Shown here: piece after piece, positions 1 to 59,800 of the stretch | Position numbering within the stretch: position 1 is the stretch's first letter | Layout: every line of letters starts with the position of its first letter | Assembly (NCBI GenBank): GCA_025055035.1 | Contig: JANWZB010000002.1 | Coordinates: 3,000-66,999, forward strand | Origin: Candidatus Kapaibacterium sp. | GTDB taxonomy: Bacteria; Bacteroidota; Ignavibacteria; Kapaibacteriales; UBA4661 | Reading direction: 5' to 3' | Length of the DNA: 64,000 nucleotides | Translations under genes and position numbers: made by a program | The notes under the pieces: generated by a model | Database searches by the model: none | Seen by the model: the letters and a program-made list of their open reading frames with translations, nothing else | Told to the model about the DNA's origin: nothing

Positions 1-439
1 GAAGATTGCTTTCGGCTCCGACCATGCTGGCTTCCAATACAAGGAAGCGCTTATTCGCTATGTTACAGAAGCAGGACATGTTGCTCAAGACTACGGCACG
101 TACTCTCCTGACTCTGTAGACTACCCAGATTTCGCAGTTGCTGTGGGTAATGCTGTTGCGCAGCAGGAAGCCGATGTAGGTATTCTCATTTGTGGAAGCG
201 GTATAGGCGTTTCCATTACAGCCAACAAAATCGCTGGTGTACGTGCAGCGAACTGCTTGACAGTCGAAATGGCGCGCCTTGCTCGGCAGCATAATAACGC
301 GAATGTTCTTACTTTGGGAGAACGTCTGCTTTCTCTTGAGCTTGCACAAGCGGTAGTTCAAGCATTTCTTGAGACACCATTTGAAGGTGGAAGACATCAG
401 CGTCGCGTAGAAAAAATTCATGCTCTCACAGGCTGCTAA
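1..439 (+). CDS. rpiB: Ribose-5-phosphate isomerase B (RpiB/LacAB family), 5'-partial at window edge
   Basis: The frame-2 translation from nt 2 reads KIAFGSDHAGF...ILICGSGIGVSITANK...HQRRVEKI, a typical RpiB. The listed ORF 143..439 is only its C-terminal part. Stop is TAA at 437-439. Confidence 0.85.
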   Translation, partial: KIAFGSDHAGFQYKEALIRYVTEAGHVAQDYGTYSPDSVDYPDFAVAVGNAVAQQEADVGILICGSGIGVSITANKIAGVRAANCLTVEMARLARQHNNANVLTLGERLLSLELAQAVVQAFLETPFEGGRHQRRVEKIHALTGC

Positions 440-463
440 AAACTACCAAATACCATATACAGC

Positions 464-1015
464 TTAGCGTTGTGATGTACCACCAAAGAGCTTTCTCATC
501 ATTTCAACTTCAGCGCGCGAAACATGTGTTGGTTTGTCATATACAGCAAGGCGCTTTTCTTCAGGTGTACGTTTTACTCCAGACATAGAAGCTCGCACTT
601 CGCGCAAGAATGCTTCAGAGGATTGCACCTTGCAACCGCTTAGCTTGGCAAAATTATGCACCTCTGTATCCGAGGAAACAACAGTAACGACATGCGGTTT
701 TTCCTCATACCGTACGAGCTCTTTAATAACTTCATCAGCTTCTTGAAAGCGTTTGGTCTCTCTAATAATCACGTTTGTGCAAGGGCTTAGTACACCAGCA
801 TTTGTGCCATCGAACACCAAAGTATAGAGCACATCTGGACGTTTCTGCGCCAAGAATTCTACTATGCGCACAAGAACTTGCCGAGCGTCTACAAGGGAAG
901 TATCCATAAGGCGCTTCATTTCTGCATCCTTGTGCATAATGTTATGCGCATCAAGAATCACATGTTGCATAGCCCTAAACGGATTGTGGACTAACTTCTG
1001 CTTTTGTACACGCAC
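464..1015 (-). CDS. YacP-like NYN/PIN-domain putative RNA-binding protein
   Basis: 183 aa with the VFDG...VIIRE...VVSSD arrangement typical of YacP/NYN proteins. It converges on rpiB. Confidence 0.55.
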   Translation of the reverse strand: MRVQKQKLVHNPFRAMQHVILDAHNIMHKDAEMKRLMDTSLVDARQVLVRIVEFLAQKRPDVLYTLVFDGTNAGVLSPCTNVIIRETKRFQEADEVIKELVRYEEKPHVVTVVSSDTEVHNFAKLSGCKVQSSEAFLREVRASMSGVKRTPEEKRLAVYDKPTHVSRAEVEMMRKLFGGTSQR

Positions 1016-1022
1016 TACTCGT

Positions 1023-1634
1023 ATGATTATTGCTTTCTACAAACCATTCGGTGTTGTATCGCAGTTCACTAGCCAGCATCCTTCGCATACAACCCTTGCT
1101 CAATTCAAGTTCCCTAGCAACGTGTATCCAGTAGGTCGTTTAGACGCAGATTCCGAAGGACTGCTATTACTAACTAATGAGCCATCATGGATACCGTATC
1201 TACTTGAGCCTCGATATCGTCATCCACGGGAATATTGGGTGCAGGTTGAAGGAGCTATCACGCAAGAAGCACTCGAAAGTATGGAACGAGGCGTGCAAAT
1301 TCAAGGCTACCTCACACGACCCTGCTTAGCATCACTTCTCGATGATGCTGCAATTTCTATCCTTCCAGAGCGCATGCCACCTATCCGCTTTAGAAAGACT
1401 ATTCCCACTTCGTGGATTTCTATAGAGCTAACAGAAGGGAAAAATCGACAAGTACGCCGCATGACTGCCACTGTTGGATTTCCCACGCTCAGACTTATAC
1501 GTGTACGTATTGGCAATTTTCGTTTATCAGTGTTCCAGCCAGGTGTATGGTGGGAGCTTAATACAGAAGAACGCCAACATCTTCTCATGAACGACCAATA
1601 CCACACCCGTAAACTTAACATTACCAAATATTGA
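1023..1634 (+). CDS. rRNA pseudouridine synthase, RsuA/RluB/RluE family (RluE-like, no S4 domain)
   Basis: Motif VGRLDADSEGLLLLTNE plus KNRQVRRM. The MIIAFYKPFGV start at ATG 1023 avoids overlap with the upstream minus-strand gene. The longer listed ORF 864.. is probably over-extended. Confidence 0.75.
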   Translation: MIIAFYKPFGVVSQFTSQHPSHTTLAQFKFPSNVYPVGRLDADSEGLLLLTNEPSWIPYLLEPRYRHPREYWVQVEGAITQEALESMERGVQIQGYLTRPCLASLLDDAAISILPERMPPIRFRKTIPTSWISIELTEGKNRQVRRMTATVGFPTLRLIRVRIGNFRLSVFQPGVWWELNTEERQHLLMNDQYHTRKLNITKY

Positions 1635-2673
1635 CTTCGGGTACTAGATCTATTCCAAATCGCTCCCGAACACTCTGTTGGATTTGCTGCGATAACTCTA
1701 CGATTTCCTTTCCATGTGCACGACCATAATTTACAAGTACAAGGGATTGTCTATCATGCACAGCAGCATCGCTATGTGCGTGCAACCGTTTGCCTTTCCA
1801 ACCACATTGCTCAATCATCCATGCGGCAGGAACTTTTACACGAGTTCCCGACAGAATAAATCCGGGAATTTCTGGATAACGTGCTTGAAGAAGGCGATAG
1901 TGTTCTAGGGGTATGTCAGGATTTTTAAAAAAGCTTCCTGCATTTCCCACAGTCGTGGGGTCGGGAAGCTTAGAACGACGAATAGAACTCACAGCTTCTC
2001 GTACATGGCGAATCGTATAGCTATTGCGACTCACATGAGGAAACAAGCTGTGAAGCTCTTGCTCCACAGTACCATAGTGAAGGCGTAAATCGCCTAGCTG
2101 AGGGTTTTTACGAAGGCGTAGCACGAGCGACGTTATTATGGCCTCTTCTCGCAGTGCATGTTTGAAAATGCTATCTCTGTAGCCAAATAAACACTCAGCA
2201 TTGCTAAGCTCAAATATTTCACCGGTTGAGCGAGCAATGCACTTCACCGTGCGCACGTACTCGCAAAGCTCTACGCCATATGCACCAATATTCTGCACAG
2301 GAGCGGCACCGACCGTACCGGGAATGCACGAAAGATTTTCTATGCCTCCCCAATTACGTTGCACGGCATATCGCACAATGGTATCCCATTCTTCGCCAGC
2401 AGCAATTTCTATGTCTAGTGTTGTAGCACTTTCCTCAAGAACAGTTATGCCCTGTAATGCTATTTTGATAACAAGAGCATCAAGATCGCCAGTAAGAACA
2501 ATATTGCTTCCGCCACCCAAAATTTTCGTTGTAGCAAACTTTGGTGCTTGTACAGACAGGAGCATCTGTAACTCATCTATACTACGGGCATAAGCAAACG
2601 CCCTTGCAAAAGCATGAAGACCAAATGTGTTGTGCGGTTGTAGCGAGTAATTCCAACGTATAAGGTTGTGCAT
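1621..2673 (-). CDS. murB: UDP-N-acetylenolpyruvoylglucosamine reductase MurB
   Basis: FAD-binding N-terminus (KILGGGSNIVL) and a MurB C-terminal domain (PTTVGNAGSFFKNP...AAWMIEQCGWKG). Start taken at the internal Met (MHNLIRW). An upstream Met at 2712 is also possible. Confidence 0.8.
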   Translation of the reverse strand: MHNLIRWNYSLQPHNTFGLHAFARAFAYARSIDELQMLLSVQAPKFATTKILGGGSNIVLTGDLDALVIKIALQGITVLEESATTLDIEIAAGEEWDTIVRYAVQRNWGGIENLSCIPGTVGAAPVQNIGAYGVELCEYVRTVKCIARSTGEIFELSNAECLFGYRDSIFKHALREEAIITSLVLRLRKNPQLGDLRLHYGTVEQELHSLFPHVSRNSYTIRHVREAVSSIRRSKLPDPTTVGNAGSFFKNPDIPLEHYRLLQARYPEIPGFILSGTRVKVPAAWMIEQCGWKGKRLHAHSDAAVHDRQSLVLVNYGRAHGKEIVELSQQIQQSVRERFGIDLVPEVNIW

Positions 2674-2771
2674 ATCTAAGCCCAATATATATAAAAGAGA
2701 TGTGCACAACACTCTATACTCTGCCGATACCCCTAAGTATAAATATGCCCTTCGACAGCATACTCGTATCC

Positions 2772-3152
2772 CTAGAAAGGAATGTCATCATCATCGACAT
2801 CAAATGGCGGAGTAGCATCAACTGAAGCAGTAGAGCTTGTGTGATACGAAGCACCGGACTGTGCCTGACTACCAAGTCTTTCAATTTTCCACGCACCAAG
2901 ATTTGTAAAGTACGCTATAGAACCATCGCGCATTTTTGTCTCACGCCCCGATAGATTGAAAAGAACCTTGATCATGTCGCCCTTCCGAAAATCATTCAGC
3001 AGAGAACATCTGTCCTGTGTTAATTGGAATTTTACGTACTGCAGATAGTTACCATCTTCTATTTCGAGAACAAACTCACGTTTACGAAACTTTTCCGTTA
3101 CTTGTTGCTCATCGAAAATTGCATGAAGTTTGCCAGATGCTTCGTACGACAT
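2772..3152 (-). CDS. DUF3127-family protein with SSB-type acidic C-terminal tail (…DVDDDDIPF)
   Basis: Core KREFVLE...YPQYVKFQL...LLNDF..GD.IKV.FNL.GRE matches the DUF3127 pattern. An AAGGA SD sits 7 nt before ATG 3152. The C-terminus DDDDIPF-stop was read directly from the DNA. Confidence 0.65.
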   Translation of the reverse strand: MSYEASGKLHAIFDEQQVTEKFRKREFVLEIEDGNYLQYVKFQLTQDRCSLLNDFRKGDMIKVLFNLSGRETKMRDGSIAYFTNLGAWKIERLGSQAQSGASYHTSSTASVDATPPFDVDDDDIPF

Positions 3153-3337
3153 GGCACAGTCCTTGACAGAATATGATGCACGAAAAAAATTTGTACAACC
3201 ACAAAGATACAAATTATCGCGTTTACCCTAACAGACTTTTTCGCCAGAATGAGAACAGCTGCTCATAACGTACTGAAAGCACTCAATCACGAGCAGCTGT
3301 CGTACACCGAGATACTAGTTGTGTGCGTCGATTAGCA

Positions 3338-3790
3338 TTACAACTTAAACGCAACGCCTATACTTCCACCTGCGCCAACCCAAAAGTTTCCACGCACAGC
3401 AATTCCAATCTTGTCAGTAAAAAAGTAGCGACCAAGAATATTAATAGAAGGACTGATATACAGATTGCCAATTGGATACAAGTACAAACCCAGACCTGCC
3501 GCAAGGTCAAGCTGAGGTACTGATGGGATCTCGAAGTGGTAGTATGCTTCTGGTCCTAAAAATATCCCAAAACTAAACCACAGCGGCAGCCCAACTGTAC
3601 CACCAACACCAATACGACCCGGACCAATTTTATCTGATACACCATACTCCAGAGAGCCATACAAGCCCACCCCTGTTAAACCAACCTCGCCAATTAGCGC
3701 ACCCTTTGTAAAGACTTGACCGTAGGACTTTTGCACAGGTGCAAGAAACAGCACAACCCCTATAGCTAGAGCAGATAGCAGTGTACGCAT
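3338..3790 (-). CDS. Small outer-membrane beta-barrel protein (signal peptide, Gly/aromatic-rich, C-terminal F-K-L)
   Basis: Start MRTLLSALAIGVVLFLAPVQKSYGQ is a signal peptide. The protein shows an alternating hydrophobic pattern and ends ...VAFKL. A GAGG SD lies upstream of ATG 3790. Confidence 0.6.
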   Translation of the reverse strand: MRTLLSALAIGVVLFLAPVQKSYGQVFTKGALIGEVGLTGVGLYGSLEYGVSDKIGPGRIGVGGTVGLPLWFSFGIFLGPEAYYHFEIPSVPQLDLAAGLGLYLYPIGNLYISPSINILGRYFFTDKIGIAVRGNFWVGAGGSIGVAFKL

Positions 3791-3992
3791 AACAGTACCT
3801 CTCGTTAAATTATAAGAACAGTAATTACACACGGAAAATACAAAAGCTTTGGTCAATACAATAATGTTTTCTCTCCATGAGCGTTCACGCAGGTTTCATG
3901 AAAAGCTCTCTCAGGAAGTCATAGGTTTTTGTATCTTTGCGCTACCACTCTCCAACACAACGCATCTTACAGTTTCATTATGCATCTCTTGT

Positions 3993-6446
3993 ATGACTAT
4001 GATCATTTCTCAACGATGGCTTGGTGAATTTGTTGATATCTCAGTATCTCCAAAAGACGTCGCGCACATTCTTACGATGCTTGGATTGGAAGTAGAGAGT
4101 GTTCGATTTCCAGCAGAGCATCTGCAGAACATTGTTATTGGCGAAATTCTGACTAAAGAACAGCATCCTAATGCACATAAACTCTCTGTATGCCGTGTAG
4201 CTATCGACGATGGACATGCTCGTACAATTGTCTGCGGTGCTCCGAATGTTAGTCAAGGACAAAAAGTTCCTGTTGCTCTTCCGGGAGCTGTACTACCACG
4301 TGGTGGTTTGAGAATAGAAAAGCGTATACTGCGCGGGATAGAATCGGATGGCATGATTTGCAGTCAAGCAGAGCTTGGTTTCACTGAGAACAGCGACGGA
4401 ATCTGGGAACTTCCTAATGATGCACCTGTTGGCAAAGCACTTGCAGAGTATTTAGGAATGGATGACGTTTTGTACGAAATCTCCATAACACCCAATCGCC
4501 CAGATTGTCTCAGTCATATCGGCATTGCACGAGAACTTGCAGCATATTTTCATGCACCTCTTCGTCTCCCTAGAATCAGCATCCAAGAAGATACAACTCT
4601 TCACACTACCGACCTCATTCGTGTGTATATCGAGGATAGAGAAGGTTGCCATCGGTTTGCTGGTCGGATTATCATGGGCGTAACTGTTGCAGAATCCCCA
4701 CAGTGGATCAAAGACCGCATTACAGCATGTGGACTGCGTCCTATCAACAATGTCGTCGACATTACAAACTATGTTATGCTTGAGTGCGGTAAGCCAATTC
4801 ATGCTTTCGACCTGAACACTATTGCCGGAAACACCCTTATTATCAGGAAAGCACGAGATGGAGAAGAGTTCATAACACTCGATGGCAAAACTCGTATTCT
4901 CGATTCCTCGATGACTATGGTATGTGATGCAGAGCGAAGCAGCGCCATAGGAGGAGTGATGGGTGGGAAGCATAGTGAAATCTGTGCATCAACTGTGAAT
5001 GTTCTTATCGAATCAGCATATTTTCACCCTTCGTCTATTCGTCGAACAGCAAAGAAGCTTGGGATTACTAGCGATGCAGCTTATCGATTTGAGCGTGGGG
5101 TAGATATGGGAACTGTCGTGTTTGCAGCAGACCGTGCAGCAGAACTAATACAGCAGATAGCCGGCGGAAAGATTGCGCAAGGCATCGTAGATATCTATCC
5201 TATTCCTCACCCTGAAAAACAAGTACAGGTGCGGTATGAGCGTGTACGAAAGCATATCGGGATTAGTATTCCTAATGCAGACCAGCGTTCTATTCTTGAA
5301 CGGCTTGGGTTTTCCATACTTGAGCACGATGAAACCAGTGCGACGTATCGCATACCTTCGTATCGCATTGACGTTGACCATGAAGCCGATTGCATTGAGG
5401 AAATTGCTAGGCTACACGGATATGATAAGATTCCGTTATCACACGTATCCCGTGTGCAGCTTACAGATAGGCGCGTTCCCCCACAATATACTCCTTTGCC
5501 TTTTGCAGAAAAGCTTAGCAGCTTCTTGCGCGCAAACGGATGTACTGAGATCATTACGCAAACTATAATTGACCCAACGTCAGCTTTCTTCTTTACCTCA
5601 TCGCCCGTGCGTATTGCAAATCCTCTCGGAGAAGAGCTTTCTTGCATGCGTCCGTCGCTTCTTCCTTCGATGCTAAAAACAATAGAACGCAATCATCGCT
5701 ACGGTCGTAAAAATCTTCGATTATTTGAGCTAGGGACAGTATTTCATTCTGTTCCTCACACTCATAACACATGCATTAGTAGCATTGCGGAAGAACAGCA
5801 TTGTGTCATAGCTTTCACAGGCACATATATTCCCTACAAGATATGGAATTCCCAAGAGCGCGCAGTAGACTTCTATGATGCGAAGGGTCTACTTGAAAGC
5901 ATTACACATATACTTTGCCTAAAATCTGCTCTTCTCCAGCCTATATTAAATCCTGAGTCCTATCCAATGTTTTCAGTAAACACAGTAGAGCTTATAGTGC
6001 AAGGCAAGAGTGTCGGTTGTGCTGGTGAGCTTGACATCCCAACATTGAAAGCATTCAATATTGATATTCCTGTTATTGCTTGCATATTGAACATTTCTGC
6101 TCTTCATACATGTTCAAGTCAGCAGCACTCATATACCCCTGTATCGCCCTTTCCAACAGTAGTGCGCGATCTAGCATTTGTTGTGGACAATAGCGTTCAT
6201 GCTGAGCGTATCCGTGAGTGTATCATGCAGCGTGGCGGAGGCTACTTACGCACAGCGCGAGTTTTCGACGTATTTTCTGGTGAAGTAGCACAGAAAGTAC
6301 TTGGCAATGGAAAAAAGAGCATTGCCTTTAGCTTAGAATTTAATTCTTTCGAAAAAACTCTCGAAGACACAGAGATTGATAGTGCTATTTGCTCTATTGT
6401 TGAGCATGTTCAAAGTAGTGTAGGGGGAATACTACGCTCAGCATAA
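3993..6446 (+). CDS. pheT: Phenylalanine--tRNA ligase beta subunit (PheT), not adjacent to pheS
   Basis: N-terminus MTMIISQRWLGEFVDIS matches the PheT MKISxxWL start. tRNA-binding, B3/B4, B5 and FDX-ACB regions are present along its length. The listed ORF 3849 (TTG start) is probably over-extended. Confidence 0.85.
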   Translation: MTMIISQRWLGEFVDISVSPKDVAHILTMLGLEVESVRFPAEHLQNIVIGEILTKEQHPNAHKLSVCRVAIDDGHARTIVCGAPNVSQGQKVPVALPGAVLPRGGLRIEKRILRGIESDGMICSQAELGFTENSDGIWELPNDAPVGKALAEYLGMDDVLYEISITPNRPDCLSHIGIARELAAYFHAPLRLPRISIQEDTTLHTTDLIRVYIEDREGCHRFAGRIIMGVTVAESPQWIKDRITACGLRPINNVVDITNYVMLECGKPIHAFDLNTIAGNTLIIRKARDGEEFITLDGKTRILDSSMTMVCDAERSSAIGGVMGGKHSEICASTVNVLIESAYFHPSSIRRTAKKLGITSDAAYRFERGVDMGTVVFAADRAAELIQQIAGGKIAQGIVDIYPIPHPEKQVQVRYERVRKHIGISIPNADQRSILERLGFSILEHDETSATYRIPSYRIDVDHEADCIEEIARLHGYDKIPLSHVSRVQLTDRRVPPQYTPLPFAEKLSSFLRANGCTEIITQTIIDPTSAFFFTSSPVRIANPLGEELSCMRPSLLPSMLKTIERNHRYGRKNLRLFELGTVFHSVPHTHNTCISSIAEEQHCVIAFTGTYIPYKIWNSQERAVDFYDAKGLLESITHILCLKSALLQPILNPESYPMFSVNTVELIVQGKSVGCAGELDIPTLKAFNIDIPVIACILNISALHTCSSQQHSYTPVSPFPTVVRDLAFVVDNSVHAERIRECIMQRGGGYLRTARVFDVFSGEVAQKVLGNGKKSIAFSLEFNSFEKTLEDTEIDSAICSIVEHVQSSVGGILRSA

Positions 6447-6537
6447 TAATTCGCTGCACGAGCTTTGATGCAAATAAGCATTTACTTCAGCGGTTCATCT
6501 TATACACCAGATAACTATCCTTCTTGGAGAAAAAACA

Positions 6538-6852
6538 ATGATATGGAAAATACTTGCAGGTGTATGGCTTTCTATCGCTATAGCAATTATGAGTACATGG
6601 CTCGCTCATGGTTCTCATATTTTTACAAAAGATAAAGTACAAGTCGTAACAAAGCGCCTTAATCCTACGTTTGGCGTTGAAGAAGAAATTATTGAGTGGC
6701 AGCCACAATTTCGTTTAGGACTGGAATATGCAGCTCCATCAGCGGTCTTATGTGTAATAGTTGGAATCATATGTCTACGCATTGCCTGCCGTACAACACA
6801 AACCCTTCCTTCTAATCTGAAGAATCAAACAAAAACAACAAGTAGAATTTGA
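6538..6852 (+). CDS. Small hypothetical membrane protein (two predicted TM helices)
   Basis: 104 aa with a GGAG site upstream and hydrophobic N- and C-terminal segments. No recognisable family. Confidence 0.4.
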   Translation: MIWKILAGVWLSIAIAIMSTWLAHGSHIFTKDKVQVVTKRLNPTFGVEEEIIEWQPQFRLGLEYAAPSAVLCVIVGIICLRIACRTTQTLPSNLKNQTKTTSRI

Positions 6853-6896
6853 CGTTCAGCTCTACTTGCAATTTTTACTGCTTTGGAGGAAAACAT

Positions 6897-7556
6897 ATGC
6901 AAGCTACTCTCTATACACGACGCAGACTACACCATACTGCAACAGCAGTCGCTACTGCTGTAATTAGCACTGTACTGCCATACTTTATATATGCTACAGG
7001 CTTCCCTTTTGGAACAAAAGGAAATAAAACTATCAAGCTTGATAATAGGTACGGAAATAACCAAGTACAATTTCACAGTAAAGCACCGTTAGAAGAAATC
7101 AACGGCACGGCTAGCGTTACTGGCTCATTTTCCTTCGATCCATCGAATATAGAAGCAACTCATGGAAAAATTGTCGTCCCCGTTAACTCAATGCAGACTG
7201 GTATCGAGCTACGCAACAAGCATCTCATGAGCAAAGACTGGCTTGATGAAGAATCGTACAAAGAAATTGTGTTTGATGTTAAAAGCATCTCGTCCGTACA
7301 GATTGTCTCAAGTGCTCAAGGCAAAGGTGTAGCAAAAGGTATCGCAGAAGGTGTATTGTTCCTTCATGGTGTTTCTAAACAGATTTCGTGTCCGATTGAG
7401 CTTACATACATCGAAAAAGGCGATGTAGTGATGGTCAAGACCGAGATGTCAGTGTCATTAAGGGACTTTAACATTTCTGGAAAGCGCGGTATTGTTGGGA
7501 GCAAAGTAGCAGAAACGATTGCGGTCAAAGCTACGATGTTCGGCGCGGGTTCGTAG
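6897..7556 (+). CDS. YceI-like family periplasmic protein (Tat/Sec signal, TRRRL)
   Basis: GGAGGA SD sits 6 nt before ATG 6897. YceI-like pattern (FDPSNIEATHGKIVVPVNSMQTGIELRNKHLMSKDWLD...). N-terminal RRRLHH followed by a hydrophobic segment. Confidence 0.7.
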   Translation: MQATLYTRRRLHHTATAVATAVISTVLPYFIYATGFPFGTKGNKTIKLDNRYGNNQVQFHSKAPLEEINGTASVTGSFSFDPSNIEATHGKIVVPVNSMQTGIELRNKHLMSKDWLDEESYKEIVFDVKSISSVQIVSSAQGKGVAKGIAEGVLFLHGVSKQISCPIELTYIEKGDVVMVKTEMSVSLRDFNISGKRGIVGSKVAETIAVKATMFGAGS

Positions 7557-7560
7557 TTAG

Positions 7561-9855
7561 TTACTGCAGTAGCGCAGGAAGAGCAGATTCGTACACAGAA
7601 CGAAGTCTGTAAATAGATGTTTCCATATATCCAACGATCTTGAACACATCCTCTACAACAGTACCGATATGCTGTACAGACACTTCGTAGGCAGCACTAA
7701 GTCTCTCTAGCATGGGAATATTCGTGTGAGGCAGTGCTACAAGAATACGAGATTGTATCTCACCAAACATCATAGGTACAGTTGGTGTAGACTGCATATC
7801 TATAGTTACCCCAAGATTACCATAAGAGTTAATAGCCATTTCTGCCAGAGCAACTGCTAAACCGCCTTCGGAAATATCATGCACAGCATGAACTAGACGC
7901 TGACGAATAGCAGTAATAACCAAAGCTTGAAGGCGCTTTTCTGCTTCGATATCCAGAAATGGTGCATCTCCCGTAATGTAACCATGTATTTGCTTGACGT
8001 ATTCAGAACCGCCAAGTCCTAGATTTGGCAGATCGTTCTGAATAAATAGTAATACAACAGCATCTCCAGCGTTGGTAAATCCATTACCTGTTACCGTTGA
8101 AACATCATCAATCAGTCCTACCATACCAATTGTTGGTGTAGGGAATATTGTGCGTGGCTTGCCTCCAGTTCGCGCAGCAGCTCGTGATTCGTTGTGAAAG
8201 CTCACATTGCCTCCCGTTACAGGTGTGTTTAATGCACGGCAAGCATCACCCATACCACGCAGTGCTTCACGAAACTGCCAGTACACTTCAGGATTGTACG
8301 GATTACCAAAGTTCAAACAGTTGGTAACTGCAACAGGTTCTGCTCCCGTACATGCTACGTTGCGTCCTGCTTCGGCAACAGCGATCATCCCTCCCATATA
8401 AGGATTCAGATACACATAGCGGCTGTTACAATCTGTTGTAACGGCAATTGCTTTGCCCGGCAACTCCTTTATGCGCAAAACAGCAGCATCGGCACTTGCA
8501 CGCAGAATAGTGTTTGTCCCAACCTCGGCATCATATTGTTCATAAATCCAGCGCTTCGATGCTATGGTAGGGGATGAAAGAATTTTCCAAAATGCTTCTT
8601 CTGTTGGTCGAACATCCTGCAATGCACGAAAATCTTCTTTGCGTGTTTCGCTGATGTATGCAGCTTCCTTCCACTCACGCACATACACTGGCGCTCCGCC
8701 TCCTAGTACTAGAGATTGCGCAGGAACTTCGGCTACTTGCTTATCATTGTGGAAAATACGTACCACACCATCACCTGTTACTTCTCCAATTTGCGTTATC
8801 GGCACGTCCCATTTTTCGCAGATTCTCCGAGCTCTTTCTTCATGACCTCTTTGGACGACAACAAGCATACGCTCCTGAGATTCTGAAAGCAGAATTTCAT
8901 AAGCACTCATGCCTTCTTCGCGAAGCGGCACAAGATCTAAATTGATAACCATACCTGTTCCTGCCTTAGCACTCATCTCCGATGTAGAACAGCAAATTCC
9001 TGCTGCTCCCATGTCTTGCATGCCTACAACTACTCCTTCTGCAATAAGCTCCAAAGAGGCTTCTAGAAGCATTTTTTCAGCGAATGGATCGCCAACTTGA
9101 ACAGTAGGACGCATATCTTCTGGAGATTCTTCAAACTCTTTAGATGCCATCGAAGCTCCATGAATACCATCTCGTCCTGTACGACTGCCTAAAATAAAGA
9201 CAGGATTTCCAACGCCTGATGCAACGGCTGATGCCGTTTTACCAACCTCTACAATCCCTACTGCCATTGCATTAACAAGAGGATTCTCGGTGTAGCACTC
9301 GTCAAAATACACTTCACCGCCTACAGTTGGTACACCGAACGCATTACCATAGTGCGAAATACCATGAACGACTCCATTGACAAGGTACCGCGTCCGTGCA
9401 GCACATTCACCATCCAGATGACCAAATCGCAGAGAATTAAGAGCAGCTATAGGGCGTGCACCCATCGTAAAAATATCGCGCAGAATACCTCCGACACCGG
9501 TTGCTGCCCCTTGCACTGGCTCGATAGCCGAAGGATGATTATGGCTTTCGATTTTGAATGCTAGCGCCCAACGTTTCCCGTTATGATAGCCAATATCAAT
9601 AAGCCCAGCGTTCTCCTGACCAGCCTCCACAAGCATTCGCCCACCAGAACGTGGAAGCTTCTTAAGCTCAAGAATCGAATTCTTATATGAACAATGCTCA
9701 CTCCACATTACACTATACATACCCAGCTCAGTATATGTTGGTAGGCGACCAAGAATTTTCATAATCGCATCAAATTCATGATCATGTAAACCAAGCTCTC
9801 GTGCGGTCTCGTGTGTAACAATGATTTCAGAATACAGATGTGGAAGAATGTTCAT
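7561..9855 (-). CDS. purL: Phosphoribosylformylglycinamidine synthase subunit PurL (FGAM synthase II)
   Basis: 764 aa with a duplicated AIR-synthase-like fold. Motifs include [17 protein letters not shown] and GGSEY. No purS or purQ is adjacent. Confidence 0.85.
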
Positions 9856-10041: not shown

Positions 10042-10524
10042 ATGTCATCTCTTCTTGGTCAGCAAGCACCTAAATTCATTGCGCTCACAGACAACGGAGA
10101 AACAATTTCTCTCGATAACCTTCGCGGACAAACTGTCGTGCTATACTTCTATCCCAAAGACAATACAAGTGGCTGTATAGCAGAAGCTTGCGACTTTCGA
10201 GATAATATGCAGAGCATTCGTGCTGCCGGGGCAATAGTCATAGGGATCAGCCCTGATAGTCCAGCATCCCACACTACGTTCAAAAACAAGCATCAGCTAA
10301 ACTTTGCACTGATTAGCGATCAACAACATGACATTTCTATGCTCTATGGCGTTTGGGTCGAAAAATCTCTGTACGGACGAAAGTACATGGGCATAGAACG
10401 CAGCACATTTATCATTAATCCTGAAGGTATTATCATACGCGAATGGCGGAAAGTCAAAGTTGCTGGTCATGTGCAGGCTGTGCTCCAAGCATTACTATGT
10501 CTTCCCAAACTGAATCCTGAATAA
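10042..10524 (+). CDS. bcp: Peroxiredoxin Bcp/PrxQ (thiol peroxidase)
   Basis: MSSLLGQQAPKF...VVLYFYPKDNTSGCIAEACDF, with peroxidatic Cys in the T/SxxC context. An AAAGG site lies upstream of ATG 10042. Confidence 0.85.
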   Translation: MSSLLGQQAPKFIALTDNGETISLDNLRGQTVVLYFYPKDNTSGCIAEACDFRDNMQSIRAAGAIVIGISPDSPASHTTFKNKHQLNFALISDQQHDISMLYGVWVEKSLYGRKYMGIERSTFIINPEGIIIREWRKVKVAGHVQAVLQALLCLPKLNPE

Positions 10525-10609
10525 TCCGATACAGTTTTTATGCAAAAAATTATAAATTGCCCATAGCAAATCTCTTGTGAAATCCTCGCTCAATGAGATT
10601 GAATTGGCT

Positions 10610-11236
10610 ATGAGGCTATACCTCTTTTTTGCTTCTCTTGTTCGCACACTCGTCATAGGTGGATTGGCACAGGTCCTTCTATCATGCAAGAATGAAAAAC
10701 TAGATTTAGTACCTTCTTCCAAGAAGCCTTGGAAAACTATCCCAAACGTTGCAGTACAAACGCTGAGTGGCGACACAATACATCTCTCAGCACTATGCAA
10801 GCTGCAACCTGTCCTGCTATCGGTATATCTTGGTACTGGTTGTCCTATGTGCGTAGTGTCTATGAAACAACTATCCCAGCATGCCTATCGCTATAGAAGT
10901 TATGGCTGGAGAGTGCTTGGTTTGAGCAATGATTCTCCAGAGAGCAATCGCCGAGCACTTGCTGAACCTCGTCTCGATAGTAGTTTTATACAACCGGGTG
11001 GTGAGTTTGAGGTGGAGCTTCTTTCAGATTTTGACCATAATGCTATGGAGGCTCTAGGCTGTTATCGGCGTCATCTCGATACAGAGCGGCATGGACTTTT
11101 CCTGATTGATACAGCAGGATATATTCGATTTGAATATATCGACAAACGCCCTTTTCAGAATTGGTCTGCACTTACAGACACTATGAAAGCAATCTTTTTT
11201 AAACTGCATTCCCCCCATCCTAGAACACCATCCTAG
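10610..11236 (+). CDS. Redoxin/AhpC-TSA-family thiol-disulfide oxidoreductase lipoprotein
   Basis: Lipoprotein signal (MRLYLFFASLVRTLVIGGLAQVLLSC) followed by a thioredoxin-fold region (LSVYLGTGCPMCV). Sits in tandem after bcp. Confidence 0.65.
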   Translation: MRLYLFFASLVRTLVIGGLAQVLLSCKNEKLDLVPSSKKPWKTIPNVAVQTLSGDTIHLSALCKLQPVLLSVYLGTGCPMCVVSMKQLSQHAYRYRSYGWRVLGLSNDSPESNRRALAEPRLDSSFIQPGGEFEVELLSDFDHNAMEALGCYRRHLDTERHGLFLIDTAGYIRFEYIDKRPFQNWSALTDTMKAIFFKLHSPHPRTPS

Positions 11237-11302
11237 AACAGTACATCACAGAGATTAGTAGCCTTTTGCATCATTTTGTGTTATTGAGGAGAACTAGTTA
11301 CC

Positions 11303-13891
11303 ATGACAAAACAGCTACGACCATCATCGAAGCGCTCCACTCAAAGTCGTCGCCGAATTACTTCACCACAGTCGCTTATACCGGAGCGATACCATACTGC
11401 AATCTATATTGCAATACTTGCTGCGTCAGTCTTATTGTTTCTTCGCGGCACGCTCTTCGGTAGTGGAGTTTTTTTCGCATCCGACAACATAGCTTCGGGA
11501 AGCTTTATCCCGTTTTTAGAAGCAGCAAAGAAAAGCGGGGAGTACCCTTTATGGATGCCATATATCTTTTCTGGGCTGCCAAGCTATGCAGCTCTCTTAA
11601 CCACTGGTGAACGCTGGTGGGACATCATTATGCTTGTGTTCAACACTCTCTCGCGGAGCTTTGGTGCACTATTTGGAAGTGATGCAGCGCGTGTAGGACT
11701 ATTTTACATCCTTTACGGCATTGGAATATACATACTCATGCGCAGCAAGGCACACAGCCGATTTGTCGCGTTTTTTGCAGCGTTCTCCGCCATATTCTCA
11801 ACGTTTATCATTGTGTGGGTTGTGATTGGTCATAATACAAAGCCTATGGCTCTCATGACCTTTCCATATATCTTGCTCTTTCTTGAAAAGCTGCGCGAAC
11901 GATTCTCTCTGTTATTCGCAGTTCTTCTCGTCATTGCTGTTCATATCCTTATTGAATCAACACACGTGCAAATGGTCTTTTATGGGCTATGCTGTGTAAG
12001 CTTATACCTTCTTATTGAAGCAATAAACCGCCTTGTCAATAAGCAATCGGTTGCTGGGGTCGCAAGGGCAGCAGGAGTCATGATTATTGCTGGCGGATTA
12101 TCTTTCGCTATGGCAGCAGACCGATACTTATCTGTCCTTGAGTATACACCCTATTCAACGCGCGGTACTGCACCAATAGAGAAAACAGCAGGTCAGAAGC
12201 AGGATGAGAGTGGAGGATTCGACTATGAATATGCAACGAATTGGTCTTTTAGTCCGCAAGAAATGATAACGTTTCTTGTTCCCAACTACTTTGGCTTTGG
12301 GAAAATGACAATTAATGGTGAAATGCAAAATACCTACTGGGGGCAAATGCCGTTTACCGACGCTGCAAACTATATGGGGATTGGTGTGCTCACTCTAGCA
12401 ATTTTCGGTGCGTGGTACTGGCGGCGTGATACGTTTGTCCAGTTCCTTGTCGTAATGGCAGTTTTTGCTCTACTTCTCTCTTTTGGGAAAAACATGCCTC
12501 TTGTGTATAACATGTTTTTCTACGGCATTCCAAACTTCAACAAATTCCGTGCTCCCCAAATGGCACTTGCTCTGACACAGTTTGCTGTACCTATTTTAGC
12601 AGGCTACGGGATAACTGGCATACTGCAGCAGCGATCCTTAAATGACCAGAAGCGGCAGCGTGTTATTCAGCAGCGATGGCTTGTAGTTGGTGTTGGCGGC
12701 GCAGTCCTGTTCTTGCTTATAGGCTTTACATTTAGCATAGTAGGCAAAGAACCTTATATCAATGCTGTTTCTGCAGCTACTACAGAGCAATATCAGGCAA
12801 TTCTCACACAAGTTCGTGATAACCCGCAGCAGCTAGCAGCATACAAAGAGCGTATTGCACAACTTGCTCGGGAACGGGGAAAACAAATCTACCAGCTCAT
12901 GATCGACGACTGGTACACAACAGCGCTACTCGGATTTTTTTTCATGCTAGCAGCTTGGCTTCTTGTTCGTGGTACTCTTTCTACTGCTGTTGCTTTCGTA
13001 GTATTTGGGATTCTTCTAGCTATAGACCTATGGCGAGTAGCAGTGCGTCCAATCGAGATATCATCGCAGCGCTATGAACAAACAGTGTTCCGTAAAACAG
13101 ATGTCATCTCTTTTCTCCAACAAGATACAACCCTCTTTCGCGTAGCAGATTTCAGCCAAGCACCCAACATCATGGCGTACTTTGGAATACAGCATGTGCA
13201 TGGTTATCATTCAGCGAAGCTCCGTGTATATCAAGATCTTCTCGATGTTGCTGGGAAGGGTGGAGGTTCTGTTATTGCCAATCCATTTCTGTGGAATCTC
13301 ATGAATGTAAAATACCTAGTTTCGGAGCGCCCAATACTTGAAGGCATGCAGCCTGTGTTCAAATCTCAAGAAACTCCGCTGCTTGTGTACGAAAATCCTT
13401 CTGTTTTACCTAGAGCTTTTTTCGTTAACCGCGTGGAAGTTGCTCCGCAAATAGCTATTTTGCACCACCTCAGAGATGGAGACTTTGCTCCCCTAGAACT
13501 CGCATACCTTGAGCAACCACTCACACAGCCTATAGATACTATACCCGGTGACATAATGGAGCACATTAATCGAGTGCAGCTTTTAAAATACAACAACCAA
13601 TATATTGCGTTCAAGGTCAATGCATCTGGTAATAATTTTCTCTTTGCAAGCGAGGTGTACTATCCAGCAGGTTGGAGAGCATATATTGATGGAAAAGAAA
13701 CACCTATTTTCAAAACAAACTATGCATTTCGTGGTGTCATTGTTCCTCAAGGTACACATACAGTCGAAATGCGCTTTTTCTCAGAGCGTTTTATCATTGG
13801 GAAGAATATAAGCCTTGCCTGCAACCTTTTTGTTCTTGCTCTACTAGGAGTAAGCATATGGCAGTGGAGAAAACATGACACTCTATACTGA
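11303..13891 (+). CDS. YfhO-family polytopic membrane protein (glycosyltransferase-like)
   Basis: 862 aa with many TM helices and a large C-terminal extracytoplasmic domain. GAGGAG SD upstream. Stop is TGA. Confidence 0.65.
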   Translation: MTKQLRPSSKRSTQSRRRITSPQSLIPERYHTAIYIAILAASVLLFLRGTLFGSGVFFASDNIASGSFIPFLEAAKKSGEYPLWMPYIFSGLPSYAALLTTGERWWDIIMLVFNTLSRSFGALFGSDAARVGLFYILYGIGIYILMRSKAHSRFVAFFAAFSAIFSTFIIVWVVIGHNTKPMALMTFPYILLFLEKLRERFSLLFAVLLVIAVHILIESTHVQMVFYGLCCVSLYLLIEAINRLVNKQSVAGVARAAGVMIIAGGLSFAMAADRYLSVLEYTPYSTRGTAPIEKTAGQKQDESGGFDYEYATNWSFSPQEMITFLVPNYFGFGKMTINGEMQNTYWGQMPFTDAANYMGIGVLTLAIFGAWYWRRDTFVQFLVVMAVFALLLSFGKNMPLVYNMFFYGIPNFNKFRAPQMALALTQFAVPILAGYGITGILQQRSLNDQKRQRVIQQRWLVVGVGGAVLFLLIGFTFSIVGKEPYINAVSAATTEQYQAILTQVRDNPQQLAAYKERIAQLARERGKQIYQLMIDDWYTTALLGFFFMLAAWLLVRGTLSTAVAFVVFGILLAIDLWRVAVRPIEISSQRYEQTVFRKTDVISFLQQDTTLFRVADFSQAPNIMAYFGIQHVHGYHSAKLRVYQDLLDVAGKGGGSVIANPFLWNLMNVKYLVSERPILEGMQPVFKSQETPLLVYENPSVLPRAFFVNRVEVAPQIAILHHLRDGDFAPLELAYLEQPLTQPIDTIPGDIMEHINRVQLLKYNNQYIAFKVNASGNNFLFASEVYYPAGWRAYIDGKETPIFKTNYAFRGVIVPQGTHTVEMRFFSERFIIGKNISLACNLFVLALLGVSIWQWRKHDTLY

Positions 13892-27996: not shown

Positions 27997-28173
27997 ATAT
28001 ATTGAAGTTTGTCGTGAGCTGCCAAAGTGATATTTTTATGGGCTTAATTCTTGTCGCAATACTTTCAAATAGTGCCCTTCGCTATGATGTTGTGTGCTGT
28101 GCGTTGCTTCCATATGCTGCGTTGTGTGTGGAAAACATCATTGAAAACAGCATGTTGTAGCATAATGTTGCTG

Positions 28174-31100
28174 ATGTGCCAGAACCTGCAACGACTACAC
28201 ATCTCGCAATGCGGAGGAACTCTTCTAGTGTTGCTGCTCTCATCTGTACATGTATTGTACACGCAATCTTTAACGCTTTTTGATGTCAATGCTTCGGCGT
28301 TTCCTGTGGTCCGAGCAAAGTTTTTTGCTCTCGATGCTGACGGAAAACCGCTAACTGATATATCTGCTCGTGATGTTGTTGTGCGAGAGCATGGGGTCCC
28401 CCGAACTGTAACAGCTGTTGTGTGTTCTCCACAGCAGAGCACAGTGCGGTCTCTCTCTGTTGTTTTGACAATTGATGTTTCAGGTTCAATGAAAGAAGGA
28501 ACTTCGGGCGTTTCGCATTTGTCCTTAGCACAAGCAGCTGCACGTGCATGGGTGCAGGCTATGCCTGAAGAAAATGTCGAATGTGCAATTACAAGTTACG
28601 ACCACATAAGCTATCTCAACCAAGATTTTACACAAGACCGTAAGCGTCTCCTTAAAGCTATCGCTAATTTGAAGCCTCAAGGGGGAACAGATTATGATGC
28701 AGGACTTCTCAGACCGCAAGGAGGAAGCTTGTTCGTGATGCAAAATGCTAAGTATAGTCGCCGTATCGTCATTTTTCTTACAGATGGACAAGGCGGAGGA
28801 ACTGAAGAGCAAATAATTGAAGTAGCAAAAAGCGATGGCGTGAGCATATACTGTATTGCTGTTGGTATGCCTGCACCCGAAATTCTACGCAATATTGCAC
28901 GCCAGACAGGAGGAGAGTGCTTCGATAATATTACAACAGTTCAACAAGCTGAGCAAATCTACCGTATTCTGTTACAATTTGCTCTTGGGAGTAAGCCATG
29001 CGAAGTATCATGGCTCAGCGAGCAGACATGTAGTGTCAGCCGTGTGCAAGCAACACTATCGCTCCCTGCACGCCTACTCTCCCATGCGTTTACCTACGAG
29101 ATTCCCGCAAAAGCTGTCAAGGCGCTAGAATTTTCGAGCGAAAACATTACCTTTGGTGGAGTTCCTCCGGGAAAGTCGCGAGAGATGCGTTTAGTTCTAC
29201 GTGCACGTAATAGTGCGTTTACCGTTAATAGTATTGAGAGTTCAGATGAACGATTTAGTGTAACACCGACGTACTTTACCCTGAAGTCTGGACAGCGTAA
29301 AGTCGTTACTGTAAAATATACTCCTACAGATTCAGGATATGCCTTTGCGACACTAACAGTGAACGATAATGTATGTGGGAACCACACTCTGTATGTCAGT
29401 GCAGGATTCCCTGGAAAAAAGCCTCAGCAATCCACATTGAAGTTGTTAGAGCCAAATGGTGGTGAGCAGTATGTTGCTGGGTGTGATACGGTGATTCGTT
29501 GGCAGGGAATTACGCCATCGGAGGCTGTCAGTATTGAGTTCAGCGATGATAATGGTGCATCGTGGCAGAAAATCATTCCTGCTACAAGTGGTCTGCGAAC
29601 AGATTGGCAGATACCCAAAACTTCAACAACTAGAGCACTTGTTCGTCTAAGGCAGCTTCAATCGCCTACATTTTCTCATTTCAAAGACCTCATGACAAGT
29701 GCTGTCTTTCTGCCCGATAATCGTACAGCTGTAACACTTGGTTCAGGAGGAGTTGCGCGAGCATGGAATCTCGATAAAGGTACAATGGGGCAAATATACT
29801 TTAGCAACCAGTTTGGTCAGCGTAAGAGCACCCTACTTCCCGGTAAGCTTGTCGTAACACCGCAGGGCGAATACGTTATTGGCGGATTTGATGAAGGTAC
29901 TGTGCGAATTTGGGACGCTGCAAGTGGCGACTTAGTGGATGTATACTACGATCATGCCGATGCAATTACTGCATTGCGGTTCTTCCCGAGTGATGGGAGC
30001 CGTGTAAGCCGTGTTCTTACCGCAAGCCTCGACAGTACTGCACGAGTATGGTACATAGAGAACGCAGAAACTGCACTTGTGCTTAAGCATAACGGCCCTG
30101 TATACGATGCTGTTGTTTCACCTGATGGTTCTCTTATCGCGACAGCTGGTGGTGATAGTGTTGCTATGCTGTGGGATGCGAAAACAGGCGAGTTACTCTA
30201 CAGGTGCGAAGGACATACGGATGTTGTCCTAAGCGCTGCATTTTCGCCGGACAGTAAGAAGCTTTTGACAACAAGTGCTGATGGAACAGCACGAATCTGG
30301 GATACACGCAAAGGAACACAGCTGGAACGATTCACAGGACATAGAAGTGTTGTATATATGGGAATCTTCTCGCCCGACGGGGAGCGTGTTGTGACGTGTA
30401 GCGCTGATAGTACTATCAAGGTATGGAGTGGCAAAGGTGGAGGATGGATCCAAAATCTACGAGGGCACCAGGGTATTGTAAGAAAAATTATGTTTGTACC
30501 TAATAGTTCAGCGATACTTTCAAGTGTGAGTTCTGATAGAACAGCAAGAATATGGGATTTATCTGCAGGTCGTACAGTCCAAATTCTTGGAGGTGTTGAA
30601 GCACGCAGCAAATCCAGCGTTGGAAGTGGAATAGGCATAGCTGATGGGCATACTGGTGCAGTGTACGATATGGTATTTTCTCCTAATGGTGCGTATGCAG
30701 CTACAGTAGGCACTGACCATAAAGTGTATTTTTGGAGAATAAATACAACAGCATCAGTCTCTGCTGGAAGTATTTTTCGATCTAGCCCTTTAATTTGGGC
30801 GCTTGACACCACTGCTGTACAAGAAGCTATCTCTGCTGCTCCATTTACTATTACTCAGCCTCGTTTTTCTGTTAAAAGCATTGATATGGGGCGGCAACTG
30901 CGTGGGGACAGCAAGGATTCTGTTATTGTAGCTTGTATCCAAAATGAGGATAATACTCCTTTGCGCATTGATGAGTTGTCATTTCTTGGTAGTGCGGCAC
31001 AGGACTATAGTATTGTGTCAGGCGGAGCGCCGTGTATCGTACCCCCAAAAGGTTCTCGTAATCTGGAAGTACGCTTTAAGCCGTGCTGCGTGGGCGGGAG

Positions 31101-56865: not shown

Positions 56866-59800
56866 TCATTTGTGTTGGAATAGTTTGGTTATGCGTAGCG
56901 TAGTATCGAGCAAGCGTTCTCGCACACTCAGTAGACCCAACGATAAAAGCACGGTGAAGATTGTCATGCATATCAAAACAACCGCATTATAGCAGACAGT
57001 CGGCACGTACTTCTGGGAAAAGAACATACGCTTCTCATGAATTAGCATTGGATAGTCGAAAAGTCCGATGTGCGCTTGGGTCATTACTCCGCCAGTGCTA
57101 TCAAGGGCTTGTAGCATAGCGTGGAGCTTATCCTGTGCTTCGAGCACCTGACGGTGGATTTCTTGATTTCCATACTTATCTTGAAACTGTAAGCGGTGCT
57201 GCTCGACCGCAGAATCGAGAGAAGCCTTGTTTTGTTCATAAGCGTCAATTTCTCGCTCTGCTCTTTCAATACTTTGATTGAGTTGTACAAGTTTAGTCTG
57301 CAGTTCGGCGCTTAGTGTGGAGGAGTCGGCTTGAGCAAGGAGAGAGTTACGTTCTTGTAGTGCCGCGTCACGTTCATCGTAAACACGTAGAATATTTTTT
57401 GCTGGCGCCTGCAGTTCATCATCCCTACTTTGGAAACGATTATACCTATCTTGCATCGTTATTAAGCCTTCGTATGCCCAGCGTGCTGGGATAAGCTGGC
57501 AAATCTCTGGGATTTCGCGTGTAGTGTTGAACTTTAAGTGAGTCATCTCGCTGTATGGAATAAGAGCGCCCCCAAAGATGATTTGGGGAATGAGAACAAG
57601 GGGTACAATGTTAAATGCTGCTTTTGCTGACAGGTTCGGTAGCGCTGATATAAGGAGTCCAGTTGCTATACCAACAATCGAAACAAGAGTAAGAAATAGT
57701 AGGTACGCAGCATGAAGTTCTTGGAGCTGCAGTATCGGAAAAGCAGCTATGATAAAGAGAGCGTTTTGCAGCAATGCAAAGACAACGAGCGTAATGAACT
57801 TCGATGCATAGTAGCTGAGGTTGCCAATATTCAGCATCCGTTCTCGCAGAAGAACAGCAGCGTCTTTGATGATTTCATCTATACTATTGGTAATTGCTAG
57901 AAATGTTGCAATGATAACTGCCAAAAATATGAAGATGGCAAGGTTGTCGTTTTGAAAGAGATTGTATTCGGCATCGATGTCGGCTGCATGCCGCAAAATG
58001 AAGCTTACAGCAAGAGCAAGAGCTGGTGCTTCAAAAAATGTAATAATGAGATTAGAGCGGTCGCGAAACTTGTTGACAAAGTTCCGTTGTAAGAGAGTAG
58101 TAAATTGTCGCCACTTTTCGCGCAAAGAGAGTTCACGAGGCTGTGGAAGTGAGACGCGTTCGGAGTCTTCTATTGTTAGGCGGTGTACAGAAGCACGAAA
58201 ATCCAGAAACTTTTCCTTCCAGTACATTGGTGTGTATTTACGCTGAGACAGGGGCACACCATCAATATCCCGCAAGGGTTCTTCGAGCGTTTCGAGCAGC
58301 AAATCCGGTTCAACGTTTTTACATACAGGACACTCAACCATTTCAGCAGCAACTTCGGGGTTTACAGGCGAAGCAGAAACGTGAGACTCAAGAGAATGAG
58401 TTTTAAAGTATGCTAGTGCTGCCATTGTGTCGCCAAAAAATGCAGTTTTTCCTCCTTTGTCTAGGAACAAAATCTTATTGAACATCTTGTATATCTTGGA
58501 GCTTGGCTGATGAATAACCACAAAAACAATCTTACCTTTGAGTGTTAAGCGCTGGAGTAATTCAATAATTTTTTCCGAATCTTTTGATGATAAGCCTGAT
58601 GTTGGCTCGTCAAGAAAGTATACATCTGCATCAGCTAAAAGCTCTAAGCCAATATTCAAGCGCTTACGCTGTCCTCCTGAAAGAGTTCGTTGTGTTGGGC
58701 TTCCGACCTTGACGTTGCGCTTCTCTACAAGATCGATATCTACAAGTGTTTGCTCGACAAGAGTACAGATTTCTTCATCGGACATATCGGGATGTCGAAG
58801 TCGAGCGTTATACATCAAGTTTTCATAAACTGTTAGATTTTCAAACAATAAATCATCTTGCGGTACATACCCTAGATAGTCTTTAAGTGCTTGGTAGTCG
58901 TGGTGAAGATCGTAGGCATTGATTTCGATATTACCGTCATTTGGTTTATTGTAGCCATTCATAATATTTAGCAATGTAGATTTCCCGCACCCTGAAGGAC
59001 CCATAACGGCGACAAGGTCTCCATAGTCAATCTCAAACGAGATATCATCGAGGGCAAGAGTGTTATCTTGGAAAGAGTAACGAACATTTCGAGCGATAAA
59101 ATCGCGGAAGCGAAATGGTTCGGAGCGTACTACACCTCCCAAGAACGAGCAATGGAAGACTTGCTTGGAGATAAAAATGTGGCACTCGGCAGGAAGAATT
59201 TGGGGCTTCTTTACTGCTTTCCCATTGTAGCCGATGCGATGAGGACAACCACGCGGGTCAAGAATATACTCTGCCGAGCTAGCATGATCCTTGCGAGTAA
59301 CGGTGATGTGCCACTGTTTTGAAAGACCATCATGAAAGATAGCATCGCATTCCGCATGATTTCCAAACGTGAACGATGGCTTTTTGGGATCGAACGTGAA
59401 GACTTCACTTTCGAGACCATATTGAAACGCAAGCTTACGGAGGTTAATTGGGCAGTTTCCAATTAGAACGCTGTCATTCAAGTTAACATATACTTGTGTT
59501 TCTACAGGGCGTCCGTTCACAACAAGCTGATTGGCAAGCTTTCCCAAGTCGGAATCTGTAACACCAAGCGGTGTCAGAATAATAAAGAGCTTGGTAAATT
59601 CGATGAGCAAGACGTCGTCCATACTAGGCATTTGCGAGAGAACAAACTCTGTTGTTCTACGTTCGGGGTTGATTCGACGCGATACGAATAGAGCAAATCC
59701 GAGTAGGGTTTTTGTTTTAAGGTGAAAGTAGTAGCTTAGGTCTTCGAAATTGATAGTATAGCTATCAATCGAAATGGACTGATTGTGCTGAATTTTCGTT

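Follow-up and report, generated by a model that had tools for sequence, protein, structure and literature searches.

A small gene of the DUF3127 family lies in the 64-kb stretch of DNA analyzed here (hereafter the window), and its product ends in an acidic tip resembling that of bacterial single-strand DNA-binding protein (SSB). This raises the question of whether the tip is a genuine SSB-type tip or a chance ending, what kind of domain carries it, and what the protein would do in the cell.

The DUF3127 gene and its product

Translation of the window places the gene on the minus strand at 2772..3152, with an ATG start codon at 3152, 126 codons and a TAG stop codon at 2774..2772. The predicted protein begins with MSYEASGKLH and its C-terminus is TPPFDVDDDDIPF, with DVDDDDIPF as the final residues before the stop. 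A longer reading frame from an upstream TTG at 3212, present in the mechanical ORF list, was rejected; ATG 3152 was taken as the start because the N-termini of homologs line up with it and not with the TTG. An identical protein (P0001) is found in NCBI under the name 'MAG: DUF3127 domain-containing protein [Bacteroidota bacterium]'. Residues 4-91 match the Pfam profile of DUF3127 (PF11325) over positions 1-85 of 85, with an E-value of 2.6e-23 and a score of 82.4 bits (cut-off 27), and this match, which lies above the gathering score and covers the whole profile, agrees with the family assignment made in the first-pass annotation. The following features were assigned:

2772..3152, minus strand: complete coding sequence of the DUF3127 / SSB-like protein, 126 aa (translation and Pfam)
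2877..3152, minus strand: predicted SSB-type OB-fold domain, residues 1-92, β1-β2-β3-helix-β4-β5 (AlphaFold2 and Foldseek)
2802..2876, minus strand: predicted disordered low-complexity linker, residues 93-117, rich in S, T, A, G and Q (low pLDDT, variable among homologs)
2775..2801, minus strand: acidic tip of the SSB C-terminus type, residues 118-126, DVDDDDIPF (conservation)
3202..3209, minus strand: TATCTTTG, a match to the Bacteroidota -7 promoter element TAnnTTTG (weak evidence, a lead only)

The TATCTTTG box is located 50 nt upstream of ATG 3152. The TAnnTTTG motif is not enriched in the window, where 65 occurrences were found against 51 ± 7.6 expected.

Predicted fold and kinship to SSB

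The structure predicted by AlphaFold2 on a 40-sequence alignment has block-mean pLDDT values of 80-93 for residues 1-90, with a core of about 90, and shows OB topology, comprising β1 (residues 2-12), β2 (23-33), β3 (36-45), a helix (46-54), β4 (60-68) and β5 (84-92). Beyond about residue 93 confidence declines: pLDDT is below 50 for residues 95-108, and block means are 43-62 from about residue 100. When the model was compared with the PDB by Foldseek, all of the 50 best matches were bacterial SSB, PriB or mitochondrial SSB, with a probability of 1.00 and a target TM of 0.53-0.75; PriB was found at rank 10 (1woc) and rank 43 (2ccz), and SsbB of S. aureus was also among the structural matches. 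Among predicted viral structures (BFVD), the best matches were DUF3127 proteins, followed by annotated SSBs. These AlphaFold2, Foldseek and BFVD results point to an SSB-type OB fold, and the β-rich, OB-like fold that had earlier been read from the translation is thus supported.

Sequence comparisons lead to the same superfamily. In PHROGs, the protein matches phrog_4932, named 'single strand DNA binding protein', over its full length (E 3e-23), and a second SSB family, phrog_44, over residues 51-126 (E 1.7e-7). As a single sequence it matches the SSB of Deinococcus radiodurans (1se8) in the PDB at an E-value of 0.011, and a profile built from 129 diverse members matches the same protein at 8e-6, other SSBs being marginal. 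RNase A also appeared in the profile search (E 0.002-0.8), and these matches were set aside as spurious, the RNase A fold being unrelated and no other evidence pointing to it. By hhalign, residues 55-86 align with residues 72-103 of E. coli SSB. Furthermore, a Pfam scan of the 129 members returned SSB (PF00436) as the only recurrent family besides DUF3127, in five of them at E <= 0.01, and P0122, a two-domain protein outside this set, scored 27.1 bits against the SSB gathering cut-off of 26.

Many DUF3127 members keep the SSB motif G-R-x-W-T-x-x-G-x-x-x-Y, whose R-x-W-T-x-x-G-x-x-x-Y part is common to these and to canonical SSB. Compared with LRTRKWTDQSGQDRY of E. coli, a Flavobacterium phage has LRGRLWTNPEGVEKC, a Bacteroides element has LQGRSWTNQVGELKR and P0132 has LEGRRWTDSNGKTIY, the motif being nearly literal in divergent members. 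The window protein itself did not match Pfam PF00436 at E <= 1 and matched the NCBIfam SSB model at E 0.81 only, and is accordingly not recognized by a curated SSB sequence model.

The first-pass annotation had stated that the protein apart from its tail is 'not SSB'. Given the SSB-type fold and the sequence links, namely the Foldseek and PHROGs matches, the profile match to 1se8 and the members that score with Pfam SSB, this claim does not hold. Judged by its sequence and its predicted structure, the window protein belongs to the bacterial SSB superfamily as a shortened and divergent member, and it lies outside the Pfam SSB family as currently delimited.

The window protein was aligned by MAFFT with a sequence that we take to be that of E. 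coli SSB, which ends in DDDIPF, as do the last six residues of the window protein. In this alignment, at about 21% identity, Y36 and F42 of the window protein are paired with the base-stacking W54 and F60 of E. coli SSB. Three other features differ from E. coli SSB: the β2-β3 loop with W40 is missing from the window protein and retained in a Bacteroides member; the tetramer-interface His55 is aligned with Leu37; and the W88 position is occupied by Thr72 and is non-aromatic in the close homologs of the 40-sequence alignment. Across 125 diverse members, the position equivalent to W88 of E. coli SSB is W, Y, F or H in 95. Residues F22, K24, R25, E26, F27, K41, F42, F65, Y81 and W88 of the window protein are invariant among the close homologs (40-sequence alignment).

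The overall architecture, an OB domain, a disordered linker and an acidic tip, is SSB-like. Canonical SSBs (PF00436; E. coli SSB, FpsSSB and PtoSSB) likewise have a single N-terminal OB domain, a disordered linker and an acidic tip ending in [ILV]PF. The OB domain of the window protein, of about 92 residues, is nonetheless some 15-20 residues shorter than the 105-110 residues of published one-domain SSBs, two Bacteroidota proteins included (PMC3991886).

The best sequence-level match in the PDB was to the Deinococcus-Thermus SSBs (1se8, 2fxq), and only the second half of the OB fold shows the similarity. The Deinococcus-Thermus SSB has two OB folds per chain, whereas the window protein has one. 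Natural tandem fusions of two DUF3127 domains were found in four proteins (P0122, P0132, P0141 and P0202), two with a single tip and two without, suggesting that the OB folds work in pairs; P0122 and P0132, with two OB domains and one tail, mirror the Deinococcus layout. A single-sequence AlphaFold2 prediction of the P0132 tandem gave a pLDDT of 36.8.

Conservation of the acidic tip

Across all six frames of the 64-kb window, the DUF3127 gene is the sole ORF of at least 60 aa that ends in an acidic residue followed by [ILVMF]PF. By a rough estimate from composition, which is not a tool output, an ending of four acidic residues and [ILV]PF is expected about 1e-7 times per protein.

Homologs were surveyed in four samples. 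Among the 120 best of 1,504 relatives obtained by a word-indexed protein search, 119 end in an acidic residue and [ILV]PF, and the single exception looks truncated. A HMMER search of representatives of 50%-identity clusters returned at least 6,381 clusters at E <= 1e-3, and an [ILVMF]PF ending was found in 141 of the best 150, which were inspected; among the remaining nine are sequences that look truncated or extended at the C-terminus, tandem forms without a tail, and variant endings. Relatives are encoded in at least 591 stretches of species-representative genomes, from which 80 loci were taken, and a simple script recovered 75 ORFs from them (74 complete and one running off its contig); 72 of the 75 end in [ILV]PF and two others in DDLPFF. 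Finally, the tip is kept in 73 of the best 80 of at least 530 viral contigs, with DLPW in two.

In the 40-sequence alignment of close homologs, P125 and F126 are invariant, and the 25-55 residues that precede them are of low complexity and variable length. The linker differs among homologs in both sequence and length, which results in proteins of 116-154 aa. The flavor of the tip varies with lineage. The closest Kapaibacteria relatives end in DDDDIPF and Hymenobacteraceae in DNDLPF; IDEVPF or FDDVPF is found in MAGs that carry the label Chlorobiota, Ignavibacteria or Kapaibacterium, and DDLPF or DSLPF in viral contigs.

Since the tip is conserved in all four samples, it is not a chance ending, and that explanation was rejected. 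The window protein, which ends in DVDDDDIPF directly before the stop, thus has the linker followed by an acidic D-[ILV]-P-F tip that is typical of the bacterial SSB superfamily, as the first-pass annotation had maintained in calling the DDDDIPF tail genuine; the lack of the tip in related genomes, named there as grounds for giving up this view, was not what the homologs showed.

Conservation of the tip also bears on a comparison with other small OB proteins. PriB evolved from SSB, and neither PriB nor B. subtilis SsbB is known to have an acidic tip. SsbB of B. subtilis and S. aureus, SsbC of S. aureus, SsbB of Streptomyces and PriB resemble the DUF3127 proteins in being small SSB-derived OB proteins, whereas the tip that PriB and B. 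subtilis SsbB lack is near-universal in the DUF3127 family. The DUF3127 protein could be imagined as a specialized accessory OB protein, either a PriB-like restart factor or a chaperone for RNA or structured DNA. PriB, itself derived from SSB, ranks high among the structural matches, the DUF3127 protein is small, and the two-domain fusions P0122, P0132, P0141 and P0202 suggest paired OB folds. The match to PriB is at the level of the fold only, however, and the tip-less state of PriB is not that of the window protein or of a family that conserves the tip almost without exception. Moreover, no gene neighborhood linking DUF3127 to priA or dnaB was found, and the phage contexts described below fit a general SSB role. 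We regard an accessory role of this kind as highly improbable.

Homologs in phages and plasmids

The DUF3127 family occurs across the FCB group (Bacteroidota, Kapaibacteria, Ignavibacteria and Chlorobiota) and also in phages of these bacteria. Relatives, mostly tip-bearing, are encoded by at least 97 sequenced phages (of Flavobacterium, Polaribacter, Nonlabens, Cellulophaga, Tenacibaculum and Bacteroides) and by at least 530 IMG/VR contigs. In Flavobacterium phage mymlan6-1, the gene order is an HNH endonuclease, DUF3127 (ending in SGLPF), a few small ORFs, a helicase and a primase, and the homolog's annotation as SSB rests on PF11325. In F. psychrophilum phage Fpv5, a DUF3127 protein ending in HDDLPF is encoded between a DnaC-like loader with RusA on one side and a polymerase exonuclease subunit on the other, and the neighborhood also includes a replication initiator. 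A phage-like plasmid of B. thetaiotaomicron (NZ_CP103284.1; extracted locus 10375..12894) encodes, in order, a Sak4-like annealing protein, a hypothetical protein, DUF3127 (ending in KDDLPF) and NinB/Orf. A recombination module with Sak4-like and NinB-type proteins is of the kind in which an SSB partner is expected. These observations show that the DUF3127 homologs of phages and phage-like elements sit in replication or recombination modules. The hypothetical protein between the Sak4-like and DUF3127 genes of NZ_CP103284.1, 246 aa long, had no Pfam or PHROG match and may be a member of the module.

Using tblastn with two canonical SSB queries, the OB domains of what we take to be the sequences of E. 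coli SSB and B. subtilis SsbA, we found no other SSB-like gene in mymlan6-1, in Fpv5 or in the 24-kb plasmid region, apart from one negligible match. Nor was a canonical SSB found within 6 kb in the 80 viral contigs with E. coli SSB as the tblastn query.

The family is rare on plasmids, with 2 of 72,556 records. A different arrangement was found on the conjugative plasmid NZ_CP053909.1 of Hymenobacter sp. BRD128 (extracted locus 1088..8700), which encodes a tail-less DUF3127 protein of 115 aa ending in RQPNAQL. This copy adjoins an ArdC-type anti-restriction protein (ArdcN plus a zincin-like peptidase), and a 1,144-aa Toprim/DUF3991 protein is encoded two genes off, next to TraK and TraM. The arrangement resembles the SSB-containing leading regions of conjugative plasmids.

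These contexts help to choose between the two functional readings offered in the first-pass annotation, a non-canonical ssDNA-binding protein and a decoy or competitor in the SSB interactome. As a decoy, the protein would keep the tip, bind ssDNA little or not at all, and titrate or regulate the partners of SSB. Such a reading would fit the loss of the aromatic equivalent to E. coli W88 (Thr72) in the window protein and its closest relatives, the family-wide absence of the W40 loop, apart from the Bacteroides member that retains a loop there, and an OB domain shorter by about 15-20 residues than the canonical one (compare PMC3991886). On the other hand, the SSB-type OB fold is strongly conserved, including K24, R25, F27, Y36, K41, F42, F65 and W88 of the window protein, and a pure decoy would not need such basic and aromatic residues. 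In addition, phage homologs fill the SSB slot of replication and recombination modules in which no other SSB-like gene was found. Tail-less copies also exist, on the Hymenobacter conjugative plasmid and in two tandem forms, indicating a function of the OB domain that is independent of the tail. Because a family member is the only SSB-like gene found in two complete phage genomes, the decoy reading has little in its favor and we consider it very unlikely, and the non-canonical ssDNA-binding protein is the better supported of the two.

Chromosomal setting of the window gene

In the window, the gene order is rpiB, NYN/YacP, a pseudouridine synthase, murB and DUF3127, followed on the other side by a 172-aa protein and pheT. 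The block from rpiB to DUF3127 is also present in related Kapaibacteria contigs, and no terminator-like site was found between the DUF3127 gene and murB. Directly upstream of the DUF3127 gene, the 172-aa ORF (3338..3856, minus strand) encodes a protein without a Pfam match that is rich in glycine and looks hydrophobic or membrane-associated; in related Kapaibacteria, an EVE-domain gene takes its place.

Although the protein matches the phage SSBs of phrog_4932 and phrog_44, its gene is chromosomal, and no phage genes were found near it. A prophage or other mobile origin of this copy was rejected in view of the housekeeping neighbors, a gene order common to Kapaibacteria, the lack of phage genes nearby and the rarity of the family on plasmids; the gene is a chromosomal housekeeping-type gene adjoining murB. 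Elsewhere the neighbors change: a further Kapaibacterium MAG has alaS and purD, and Adhaeribacter has an asparaginase and an HrpB-type helicase. A conserved functional operon for the cellular DUF3127 genes was rejected on the grounds that the neighbors differ between clades, and no replication or repair genes were seen next to them at the loci examined.

We also considered whether the DUF3127 protein is the main or only replicative SSB of its lineage, the canonical PF00436 gene having been lost. Searches by tblastn of the 64-kb window and of about 90 related loci (about 0.9 Mb) revealed no canonical SSB, an absence that is uninformative because the sample is a tiny and biased part of each genome. 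Every architectural element of a replicative SSB is present in the window protein, and the DUF3127 type is the sole SSB-like gene found in the two complete phage genomes. Against this reading, canonical SSBs are documented in Bacteroidota: FpsSSB of F. psychrophilum is a characterized tetramer, and both FpsSSB and PtoSSB end in DLPF (PMC3991886). B. finegoldii likewise encodes a canonical SSB, ending in ADDLPF, within a mutY-ssb-gldE locus, and bacterial SSB has been described as essential and ubiquitous (PMC9505508). We consider it unlikely that the DUF3127 protein serves as the main or sole replicative SSB. The B. finegoldii locus lies on a 93-kb PLSDB record named 'plasmid 13' (NZ_OY725915.1; extracted locus 352..3324) with chromosomal-looking HU, mutY, ssb and gldE genes, and this record may be a chromosome fragment and not a plasmid.

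Proposed function

Starting from what the analysis shows, namely the sequence features, the predicted fold, the conservation of the tip and the placement of homologs in phage modules, we propose that the window protein is probably a short member of the SSB superfamily that binds ssDNA and uses its linker and tip to recruit the partner proteins of SSB. In this proposal, the 92-residue OB domain would bind ssDNA, probably as a homo-oligomer like other SSBs, and the flexible linker would present the DDDDIPF tip to the SSB-C-terminus pocket of genome-maintenance proteins. The E. coli proteins with such a pocket include PriA, RecO, RecQ, exonuclease I, the chi subunit and primase. Docking of the tip would bring such partners to ssDNA, and the protein would work alongside a canonical SSB, not as its replacement. 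The nine-residue tip of E. coli SSB recruits at least 17 partners (PMC7145534).

How the proposed protein would share its work with a canonical SSB can be put more specifically, though only tentatively. Small SSB-derived OB paralogs are described as coexisting with the main SSB and having specialized roles (PMC5945547, PMC3616714). In FCB bacteria, a second SSB might be inherited vertically, one without the W40 loop and the His55 interface that bears the same tip and has a distinct job, for example the recruitment of partners specific to gaps or restart, or a different DNA-binding mode or oligomer; phages would have acquired it too. We hold this to be possible, if rather doubtful. Under the same doubtful reading, it may even have taken the place of the canonical SSB in some lineages, such as the Kapaibacteria here.

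Prior annotation and implications

The SSB identity of the family is already in use in several databases. IMG names many members 'single-strand DNA-binding protein', as do PHROGs and the RefSeq phage records, the latter citing PF11325, while Pfam and the NCBI annotation still label the family DUF3127. The first-pass annotation had offered a concrete functional hypothesis for an uncharacterized family, and in view of these names its novelty was overstated: DUF3127 is a divergent SSB subfamily whose identity is already visible with standard tools. In the literature searched, DUF3127 appears only in connection with a Pantoea phage SSB that matches both the SSB and the DUF3127 CDD models, where the family is not characterized; that literature contained no mention of PF11325, no description of a short Bacteroidota SSB and no experimental characterization of DUF3127.

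The advance is incremental: in fold, architecture and tip the family follows SSB, and it already goes by that name in several databases. It nonetheless gives a concrete and testable function to a Pfam DUF with at least 6,381 clusters at 50% identity, present in at least 591 FCB species genomes and at least 530 viral contigs. Should the protein coexist with a canonical SSB bearing the same tip, the two would compete for one set of partners, which raises the question of how labor is divided between them. For phage biology, the family points to the SSB of many Flavobacteriia and Bacteroides phages, and it is of relevance for pairing phage recombinases, Sak4-like proteins among them, with a cognate SSB in the genome engineering of Bacteroidota.

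Other ORFs in the window

Two large ORFs of the window were noted in passing. One, at 28051..32907 on the plus strand and 25 kb from the DUF3127 gene, encodes a 1,618-aa protein with VWA, WD40 β-propellers, a Cep192-D4-like region and a C-terminal OmpA domain; a related Kapaibacteria contig (2654..7393) encodes a 1,579-aa VWA/WD40 β-propeller protein two genes upstream of DUF3127. The other, at 56866..60447 on the minus strand, encodes a 1,193-aa protein that combines an N-terminal TerB (tellurite-resistance) domain with an ABC ATPase and an ABC-2 membrane domain, an unusual combination.
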